Origin: Escherichia coli
Lineage (GTDB): Bacteria; Pseudomonadota; Gammaproteobacteria; Enterobacterales; Enterobacteriaceae
Direction: 5' to 3' (one strand)
Length of the DNA: 64,000 nucleotides
Assembly: GCF_003334315.1 (NCBI RefSeq)
Contig: NZ_QOWR01000007.1
Shown here: positions 39,046 to 39,693 of the stretch, in pieces
Layout of the letters: each line of letters starts with the position of its first letter
Position numbering within the stretch: position 1 is the first letter of the stretch
Notes under the pieces: generated by a model
Told to the model about the DNA's origin: nothing
The model's database searches: none
Seen by the model: the letters and a program-made list of their open reading frames with translations, nothing else
Program-made: the position numbers and the translations under genes

Positions 39046-39693
39046 ATGTATCTTGATACCAGCAACGTACAGAGCCTGAAGGAAAAGCTGCTGTTATGCG
39101 CGGTTAATGAATTTGCCGAATATGGTTATGAAGGGGCCAGGGTCGATAATATTGTTAAGGCTGCGGGGTGTAGTAAACAGACGGTTTATCATCACTTTGG
39201 TAATAAAGAAAATTTATTTATTGAAGTACTGGAATATACCTGGAACGATATTCGACAAAAAGAAAAGGCCCTTGATTTCTCAGATCTTCCGCCACAAAAA
39301 GCTATTGAGAAAATTATTGATTTTACATGGGATTATTATATTGCTAACCCCTGGTTTTTAAAAATTGTGCATAGTGAAAATCAAAGTAAAGGTGTGCATT
39401 ATGCAAAATCACAGCGTCTCTTAGAAATTAACCATGCGCACTTGCAGTTAATGGAATCCTTATTGGATGAAGGGAAGAAACACAATATTTTTAAGCCAGA
39501 TATCGACCCATTGCAGGTGAATATTAATATTGCTGCGCTTGGGGGATATTATTTGATCAACCAGCATACGCTTGGCCTGGTTTATCATATCAGTATGGTT
39601 TCCCCCCAGGCACTGGAAGCCAGACGTAAGGTCATCAAAGAGACGCTCCTTAGCTGGCTTTTGGTTGATCCTTCATCTACTGCGCACGAATAA
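39046..39693 (+). CDS. TetR/AcrR-family transcriptional regulator
   Basis: 215 aa from ATG 39046 (GGGGAAG 5 nt upstream); N-terminal [31 protein letters not shown]; divergent from the catabolic operon; AT-rich coding sequence. Confidence 0.8.

Follow-up and report, generated by a model that had tools for sequence, protein, structure and literature searches.

The 17 bp over which tetR and ytfB overlap tail to tail in Escherichia coli (39677-39693 of the 64,000-nucleotide stretch of contig NZ_QOWR01000007.1 referred to here as the window) are very probably a permanent seam at the right-hand end of an operon that is old, anchored in the chromosome and non-mobile, and not the edge of a mobile element. 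The locus bounded by this seam is an accessory operon without an integrase, whose variation is a matter of ordinary chromosomal gene gain and loss. We read the overlap itself as a fossil seam that selection on YtfB keeps in place, and very probably as neither a regulatory device nor the boundary of an island.

The chromosomal order in E. coli is rpsF-priB-rpsR-rplI, followed by six minus-strand genes, tetR on the plus strand, ytfB on the minus strand, fklB and cycA. The left core anchor is rplI (30864-31313, plus strand), which encodes ribosomal protein L9 and is present in all 5426 E. coli genomes. Its terminator (31335-31366) is composed of a perfect 13-nt inverted repeat at 31335-31361 and a T-tract that continues to 31366; with an A-run upstream and a T-run downstream, it could act in both directions. 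The six minus-strand genes encode an MFS transporter of the anion:cation symporter/D-galactonate-transporter type (31415-32692), a 690 aa FAD-dependent oxidoreductase with a fumarate-reductase/L-aspartate-oxidase-like flavoprotein fold (32785-34857), a family I acyl-CoA:acetate/3-ketoacid CoA-transferase (34854-36395), an enoyl-CoA hydratase/isomerase (ECH) family protein (36405-37187), a xylose-isomerase-like TIM-barrel protein annotated as a sugar phosphate isomerase/epimerase (PF01261; 37191-38033) and a short-chain dehydrogenase, SDR (PRK12745, '3-ketoacyl-ACP reductase'; 38043-38834). Divergent from these six genes is tetR (39046-39693, plus strand), which has its ATG start at 39046 in the RefSeq placement and encodes a protein of 215 aa with TetR_N and TetR_C_29 domains. 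The right core anchor is the cell-division gene ytfB (39677-40315, minus strand), with a product of 212 aa containing OapA_N and LysM_OapA domains. The RefSeq annotation of a strain that is 100 % identical lists the same genes as are found in the window. The only gaps between the genes that lie from rplI to ytfB are of 92 bp and 211 bp, and a mobility gene therefore has no room.

At the left boundary the MFS stop codon starts at 31415, and the 48 bp that separate it from the rplI terminator (31367-31414), a spacing that the first-pass annotation had given correctly, include a small hairpin (31375-31381 pairing with 31394-31400) left over from the MFS 3' region. The enzyme genes of the operon have GC contents of 48-57 %, like those of the flanks, and lower values are limited to tetR (38-42 %) and to a patch at the 3' end of the transporter and FAD-oxidoreductase genes (40-43 %).

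The distribution of the locus was determined by megablast of the segment from rplI to ytfB against 5426 complete E. coli genomes, with variant-specific queries for the counts. The flanks are present in 5426/5426 genomes, and 3093 genomes (57 %) have 80 % or more of the interval. The form with the MFS gene is found in 1669/5426 genomes when all sub-types are included, and a three-gene TRAP system replaces MFS in a further form, found in 1444/5426. Within the MFS form, a 2.2-kb HTH/HipA-like toxin-antitoxin pair lies beside rplI in 1041 genomes, and yjfZ is present in about 270-300, a number derived by subtracting the 2227 genomes with the K-12-type scar described below from the 2523/5426 that contain yjfZ. 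The tight 48-bp left junction of the window is a trait of one strain type, with 360 of the 5426 genomes. The K-12-type scar itself is present in 2227/5426 genomes (41 %). The E. coli operon is itself mosaic in structure and includes patches in which identity is 82-90 %.

All of the structural variants split right after the rplI terminator, at 31366 or 31373, and the 48-bp junction between rplI and MFS is a hotspot for indels. Its alternative contents are 1079 bp with yjfZ, or 2243 bp with the HTH/HipA-like toxin-antitoxin pair, and an EamA transporter gene occupies the rplI-MFS junction position in Salmonella and Klebsiella. The yjfZ segment is an independent indel and is found together with the operon in ~300 genomes. 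We detected no DNA similarity among the left-junction inserts (yjfZ, the hipBA-like pair, the TRAP segments and 45 bp from the window), and a tblastn search for EamA remnants in the Escherichia junction sequences gave only insignificant matches (E of at least 0.2). Next to the hotspot is a replaceable transporter cassette (31374-33024); the swap between TRAP and MFS reaches 33024, taking in the last ~80 codons of the FAD oxidoreductase (32785-33024), and the swapped segment coincides with the patch of low GC. The window MFS is only 51 % identical to the MFS at the same position in Salmonella and Klebsiella, and is therefore a different transporter from theirs.

The ytfA pseudogene of K-12 corresponds to 39291-39693 of the window, which is the last 403 bp of tetR, and it retains the 17-bp overlap with ytfB. 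The sequence of K-12/C600 tracks that of SW07099, a genome with yjfZ plus the operon, until 133 bp beyond the yjfZ segment; there then follows a decayed 102-bp piece of the SDR gene (38644-38745, 82-84 % identity), after which the K-12-type scar rejoins at 39291 inside tetR and continues through ytfB at 97-98 % identity. This arrangement is explained by two deletions, one of which removed MFS through most of SDR and has a GGG microhomology at its junction, while the other removed 38746-39290, a segment with the promoter/operator region, the beginning of SDR and 245 bp from the 5' end of tetR, with (C)CGCCAC / GCCAC as the junction microhomology. The right edge of the presence/absence polymorphism is therefore inside tetR, some 400 bp to the left of the right-hand locus boundary given in the first-pass annotation. 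A TetR-family survey has described ytfA as variably present in E. coli, and a cell-division screen recovered ytfA-ytfB clones.

The same two scar junctions, without yjfZ and at ~91 % identity, are found in Escherichia sp. E1V33, and the scar is therefore either old or has crossed a species boundary. We also considered a foreign operon allele as the source of the K-12 SDR remnant, given its 82 % identity, and rejected it; this stretch is only 87 % identical among functional E. coli alleles, the E1V33 remnant is equally decayed, and an old, neutrally drifting remnant is a sufficient explanation.

A scan with YtfB, using one genome per species, showed that tetR overlaps ytfB in four other Escherichia lineages, among them E. 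albertii and E. whittamii; the E. whittamii locus is of the MFS form and shares the 48-bp junction of the window. Through FAD oxidoreductase homologues with 78-79 % identity we reached contigs of Salmonella enterica and Klebsiella oxytoca, in which the gene order is cycA-fklB-ytfB<>tetR-SDR-TIM-ECH-CoAT-FADox-MFS-EamA-rplI and the overlap is exactly 17 bp. Thus the flanking genes and the structure of the junction are the same across the Escherichia species, Salmonella and Klebsiella. In sliding-window comparisons the DNA identity to the window is about the same in the operon as in the flanks, at 86-95 % for other Escherichia and 76-85 % for Salmonella. The E. coli and Salmonella proteins are 87-93 % identical for TetR, SDR, TIM, ECH and CoAT, and 83-96 % for the flanking proteins; the values for FADox and MFS are 78 % and 51 %. 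In ~35 species of Citrobacter, Enterobacter, Lelliottia, Leclercia and related groups we found no tetR, and the hairpin terminator of ytfB is followed in these species by rplI directly or by a single EamA-type transporter gene. Among genomes that lack the locus, remnants were seen in K-12-type E. coli and in E1V33 and were absent from Citrobacter, Enterobacter and their relatives. The clean empty sites of most Citrobacter, Enterobacter, Leclercia and Lelliottia species, in which no remnant of tetR is left, fit an insertion into an ancestor as well as they fit clean losses.

The first-pass annotation had proposed an old variable hotspot with alternative cargo and no recent mobilization. The age of the locus and its lack of recent movement are supported by its presence at the same site in three genera, by its flank-like divergence and by the lack of att sites and an integrase. 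The proposal of alternative cargo applies to the rplI side, where yjfZ, the hipBA-like pair or nothing is found and MFS and TRAP are swapped, but it fails for the locus as a whole, since the main alternative to the operon is a deletion scar.

It is possible, although we are inclined to doubt it, that the operon did not descend vertically from the common ancestor of Escherichia, Salmonella and Klebsiella but passed between genera, as one allele of the ytfB-rplI region, by homologous recombination through the flanks, such that its patchy distribution reflects gains as much as losses. The Salmonella CoA-transferase, FAD oxidoreductase and MFS proteins are respectively 92, 82 and 90 % identical to those of K. 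oxytoca and 90, 78 and 51 % identical to those of E. coli; the operon genes of Salmonella are thus as near to those of K. oxytoca as to those of E. coli, or nearer, a sign of lateral exchange that vertical descent alone does not account for, and the flanking genes, unlike those of the operon, follow the species tree. Spread of this kind would also accommodate the clean empty sites in Citrobacter, Enterobacter and related genera, the mosaic of 82-90 % patches in the E. coli operon, and the finding of the K-12-type scar on both sides of an Escherichia species boundary. However, the divergence of the operon DNA equals that of the ytfB-fklB-cycA region, both in other Escherichia species and in Salmonella, and the 17-bp seam is constant in structure but diverged in nucleotides, as long independent residence predicts. 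Spread as an allele overlaps with our main explanation, that of an old operon anchored in the chromosome, and does not contradict it.

The recurrence of the same scar junctions at ~9 % sequence divergence is the basis for a further suggestion, which we regard as unlikely: that operon-present and scar alleles have coexisted since before the split between E. coli and at least one sister species of Escherichia, as a trans-specific presence/absence polymorphism of long standing, possibly balanced, in a carboxylate-CoA catabolic pathway, to which might be added a coupling of ytfB and tetR by terminator-less convergent transcription.

The geometry of the seam is simple. The tetR stop codon, TAA, occupies 39691-39693, and the ytfB stop codon, TAG, is read from 39679 down to 39677, such that the overlap contains five sense codons and the stop codon of each gene; the ORF list and the sequence both agree with the earlier description of a 17-bp convergent overlap in which the TetR stop lies inside the last codons of ytfB. 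The two genes overlap because tetR lacks its own stop codon ahead of ytfB. Its frame extends ~8 codons past the end of the conserved TetR fold and terminates at the first in-frame stop, which is provided by the antisense of conserved codons in ytfB; direct reading of the sequence identifies these as the ytfB Phe-Ile codons. Residue 200 of 215 is the last of the TetR_C_29 domain, homologous TetR proteins from other loci finish at positions equivalent to ~207-211 of the query, and the terminal DPSSTAHE is therefore an extension. These last ~8 residues are not conserved, and a 57 %-identical TetR, whose gene adjoins the same operon on a metagenomic contig, has ...NWIKI just before its stop codon, aligned with ...SWLLV of the E. 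coli protein.

Either Phe codon (TTY) together with the A of the Ile codon gives TAA or TGA on the opposite strand, and thus selection on YtfB fixes where tetR stops and keeps the overlap at 17 bp. The YtfB C-terminus, ...DGSFIR[AV]R followed by the stop, is kept in ~35 enterobacterial species that have no tetR, and the presence or absence of tetR makes essentially no difference to it. The LysM_OapA domain spans residues 127-211 of 212, and the overlap therefore sits inside the YtfB fold. The TetR tails, by comparison, vary with genus, ending in AHE, ARE or ARG in Escherichia, IWRE in Salmonella and NGRE in Klebsiella, although the protein upstream of the tail is conserved across these genera through ...KETILSWLL. 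The tail differences come from changes that are synonymous in ytfB (CGT/CGC, GCG/GCC, CGG/AGA/CGT, ATT/ATC); the single change in the opposite direction occurs in this window, where YtfB has a terminal Gln in place of Arg (CGG>CAG) and the substitution is silent in tetR (ACC>ACT). The length of the overlap is exactly 17 bp in three genera while its nucleotides have diverged, and the end of ytfB is unaltered in the 41 % of E. coli genomes that have a dead, promoterless fragment of tetR. Across the ~14 sequences on which this argument is built, a sample rather than the full population, the constraint appears to be one-way, with YtfB constrained and the TetR tail a passenger. The first-pass annotation had suggested that the two C-termini constrain each other, and no such mutual constraint is seen: the YtfB end is conserved regardless of tetR and the TetR tail is genus-specific. 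Strains with and without the locus show no DNA-level difference at the YtfB C-terminus, the K-12-type genomes having kept the overlapping 3' part of tetR.

No convincing intrinsic terminator was found after the stop codon of either tetR or ytfB, and a hairpin terminator follows ytfB in species without tetR. It is very unlikely that the overlap is kept for a function, in the sense that convergent transcription with no terminator in between would link the expression of the two genes, by way of antisense RNA or colliding polymerases, and let the cell-division gene and the catabolic regulator modulate one another. The constant length of 17 bp in three genera, and the lack of a canonical intrinsic terminator after either stop as against the strong hairpin after ytfB where tetR is missing, could be taken as signs of such a role; but the Phe-Ile codons of YtfB fully explain the fixed length, the TetR tail is unconstrained, and the ytfB end is unchanged even though tetR is promoterless in 41 % of E. 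coli genomes and has an IS inside it in 32 %.

The domains of the tetR product place it in the TetR family, with an N-terminal TetR_N helix-turn-helix (PF00440, residues 19-61, 3e-14) and an all-helical C-terminal ligand domain (PF17938, TetR_C_29, residues 83-200, 1e-29), in the ~200 aa size range of the family. The divergent SDR/tetR promoter region contains a palindrome, ATCAACCA-N6-TGGTTGAT (38902-38923), which five taxa have kept (E. coli, E. albertii, Salmonella, K. oxytoca and a distant copy from a metagenome) and which is a candidate operator for TetR. TetR would act as the divergent repressor of the six-gene operon. Judging from the family names of its products, the operon most likely serves to break down, by way of a CoA thioester, a hydroxy- or keto-carboxylic acid taken up by the cell; these products are a carboxylate-type transporter (MFS-ACS/TRAP), a CoA-transferase, an ECH, a TIM-barrel isomerase/dehydratase-like enzyme, an SDR and a flavoprotein oxidoreductase. 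We found no publication that describes what the operon does or reports a hotspot between rplI and ytfB.

The signatures of mobility are missing from the locus. No tRNA was identified by ARAGORN in the 64-kb window and no IS is present in it; between rplI and ytfB there is no integrase or transposase, the seven ORFs belonging to transporter, metabolic-enzyme or TetR families, and no integrase is annotated by RefSeq in eight related loci. Repeats common to both junctions, direct or inverted, do not exceed chance expectation, the longest being a shared 8-mer, and shuffled junction sequences attain a length of at least 8 in 233 of 500 trials. The earlier impression that integrase, transposase, tRNA and flanking direct repeats were all lacking is therefore sustained by the ORFs, by ARAGORN and by the junction search against shuffles. 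A search of PLSDB for plasmid copies returned only chromosome-sized records labelled as plasmids. The locus has none of the attributes of a classical island, namely an integrase, a tRNA/tmRNA or att repeats, and atypical composition with divergence independent of the flanks; nor does it have the bracketing IS elements with outer target-site duplications that characterize a composite transposon.

IS elements are found at the locus in related strains. An insertion site for an IS200/IS605 (IS609-like) element is located at 39586-39587, between GGTTTATC and ATATCAG, and is empty in the window. The IS609-like element is 1736 bp long, has subterminal hairpins, makes no target duplication and lies 91 bp from the ytfB stop; it occurs in 1745/5426 genomes (32 %), within the remnant of tetR. 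A divergent scar allele also has an IS609-like element, with TnpB intact. In a strain that is otherwise 100 % identical, IS1 is inserted between the genes for MFS and the FAD oxidoreductase and has duplicated 9 bp at 32875-32883, and strain KL53 has an IS1-bounded deletion that runs from yjfZ to beyond cycA. Each of these IS elements in relatives interrupts sequence that was already contiguous, and none brackets the operon. An IS remnant at a junction in related genomes, which the first-pass annotation had singled out as evidence against its interpretation, does exist in the literal sense, but these are secondary insertions and give no support to mobilization. While these IS copies and the AT-richness of tetR might seem to favour a recently mobilised island, moved as a unit by an integrase, a transposase or an IS and with att-like junctions as its tight boundaries, this is extremely improbable and is effectively refuted by the lack of mobility genes, tRNA and junction repeats beyond chance, by IS copies that do not bracket the locus, by the same site and overlap in three genera with flank-equal divergence, by loss junctions that are microhomology deletions inside genes, and by the lack of bona fide plasmid copies.

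The variation at this locus involves no site-specific recombination and comes about by four routes, in an order of events that we infer. Two microhomology-mediated deletions generated the K-12-type scar, consisting of yjfZ-side sequence, the 102-bp SDR remnant and the 403-bp ytfA. Indels right after the rplI terminator account for yjfZ and the hipBA-like pair, and for EamA in other genera; exchange of the transporter cassette accounts for MFS type 1, MFS type 2 and TRAP; and the IS609-like and IS1 elements represent secondary insertions. The resulting alleles have probably been traded between strains by homologous recombination via the conserved flanks.

The locus resembles the integrase-free plasticity regions of E. 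coli in its fixed position between core genes, its presence or absence, its several alleles, its lack of integrase, tRNA and att sites and the native-like GC of its enzyme genes; it differs in that the main cargo is one ancestral operon shared across genera and in having an insertion hotspot on the rplI side only. The K-12 ytfA, annotated as a TetR/AcrR-family pseudogene, is the same gene with the same 17-bp overlap with ytfB, but the window gene is full-length, with its helix-turn-helix domain, a promoter region and a divergent six-gene operon. The combination of a TetR_N helix-turn-helix and TetR_C_29 with a divergent operon and a conserved palindrome in the promoter region is reminiscent of the TetR/TetA and AcrR/AcrAB layouts, although the presumed target here would be a set of catabolic enzymes and not an efflux pump. 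As in other bacterial convergent overlapping pairs, each stop codon lies within the last codons of the partner and there is no intergenic terminator; the difference is that here the origin of the overlap can be read from comparison, in that tetR has a C-terminal extension that is not conserved and ytfB has the same length as in species without an overlapping partner.

In summary, the rplI-ytfB region illustrates clearly that an accessory locus of the chromosome can vary with no mobility machinery at all, by way of deletions at microhomologies, indels beside a terminator, swaps of a transporter cassette and later IS insertions. The operon is widespread, and the significance of these findings is mostly for annotation: the K-12 pseudogene ytfA is explained as what remains, at the 3' end, of the presumed repressor gene of a locus of seven genes, and 57 % of complete E. 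coli genomes still have this locus.

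One end of the operon is occupied by a swappable transporter cassette, found at 31374-33024 in the window and at 2012-5176 and 12127-13404, respectively, in L005 and L052, two of the comparison loci from relatives, each of which has its own coordinates. Among 5426 complete E. coli genomes, an MFS gene of the window type is present in 1669 and an alternative three-gene TRAP system in 1444; in Salmonella and Klebsiella the MFS is another one, only 51 % identical. The swap, which takes in the FAD-oxidoreductase gene's final ~80 codons, coincides with a patch of low GC content (40-43 %).

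The rplI side of the locus is also occupied by different inserts. In 1041 of the 5426 genomes, including those of the type strain ATCC 11775 and of ABU 83972, a two-gene module (L004 2352-4114) separates the MFS gene from the rplI terminator; it encodes an HTH protein of 163 aa and a HipA-family kinase toxin of 422 aa, and its relationship to YjjJ is only distant. At the DNA level, the 2243-bp insert carrying this module resembles none of the other junction variants. In Citrobacter, Enterobacter, Salmonella and Klebsiella, an EamA/DMT transporter gene (308-311 aa; L016 10757-11686, L052 13444-14379 and L054 13468-14394) is situated between rplI and either ytfB or the operon. It is missing, with no detectable remnant, from all Escherichia sampled, in which its position is taken by yjfZ (DUF2686), by hipBA-like genes or by nothing.

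Insertion sequences are present in relatives. An IS200/IS605 (IS609-like) element (L002 3377-5112; L056 3095-4736) lies in the tetR remnant, the 3' part of the gene left in scar-type genomes, and 1745 genomes have it at one identical site there. The tnpA of the element is degenerate; its TnpB, a member of the RNA-guided endonuclease family, carries a frameshift in some genomes and is intact in others (e.g. WP_024194431.1). Only one genome, that of the dog isolate Z1323PEC0011, matches the window at 100 % identity over the interval, and it carries an IS1A (L007 3536-4233, equivalent to window 32875-32883) with a 9-bp duplication. This insertion interrupts the FAD-oxidoreductase gene ~90 bp before its 3' end and probably inactivates the operon. 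A further case is a deletion bounded by IS1B in strain KL53 (L006 12521-14183), which runs from mid-yjfZ across ytfB, fklB and cycA into the metallophosphoesterase gene adjoining cysQ.

The whole operon is also found, with its gene order unchanged, on the 8.6 kb metagenomic contig SRR30564000 (L055 264-8496), which ends 126 bp past tetR; the TetR encoded there shows 57 % identity and has no C-terminal extension. Between the start codons of SDR and tetR, window 38902-38923 forms a perfect inverted repeat with 8-bp arms, ATCAACCA-N6-TGGTTGAT. This repeat is kept in the distant metagenomic copy and in E. coli, E. albertii, Salmonella and K. oxytoca, and is probably the TetR operator.

YtfB ends in ...FIRAQ in the window. 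Its last residue is Arg in all other Escherichia sampled and in most Enterobacteriaceae, and Lys in a few genera; a terminal Gln occurs in none of these other sequences. The change responsible, CGG>CAG at window 39680-39682, does not alter the residue that the overlapping tetR codon specifies. Since the KL53 deletion spans ytfB, the gene is dispensable in that strain.
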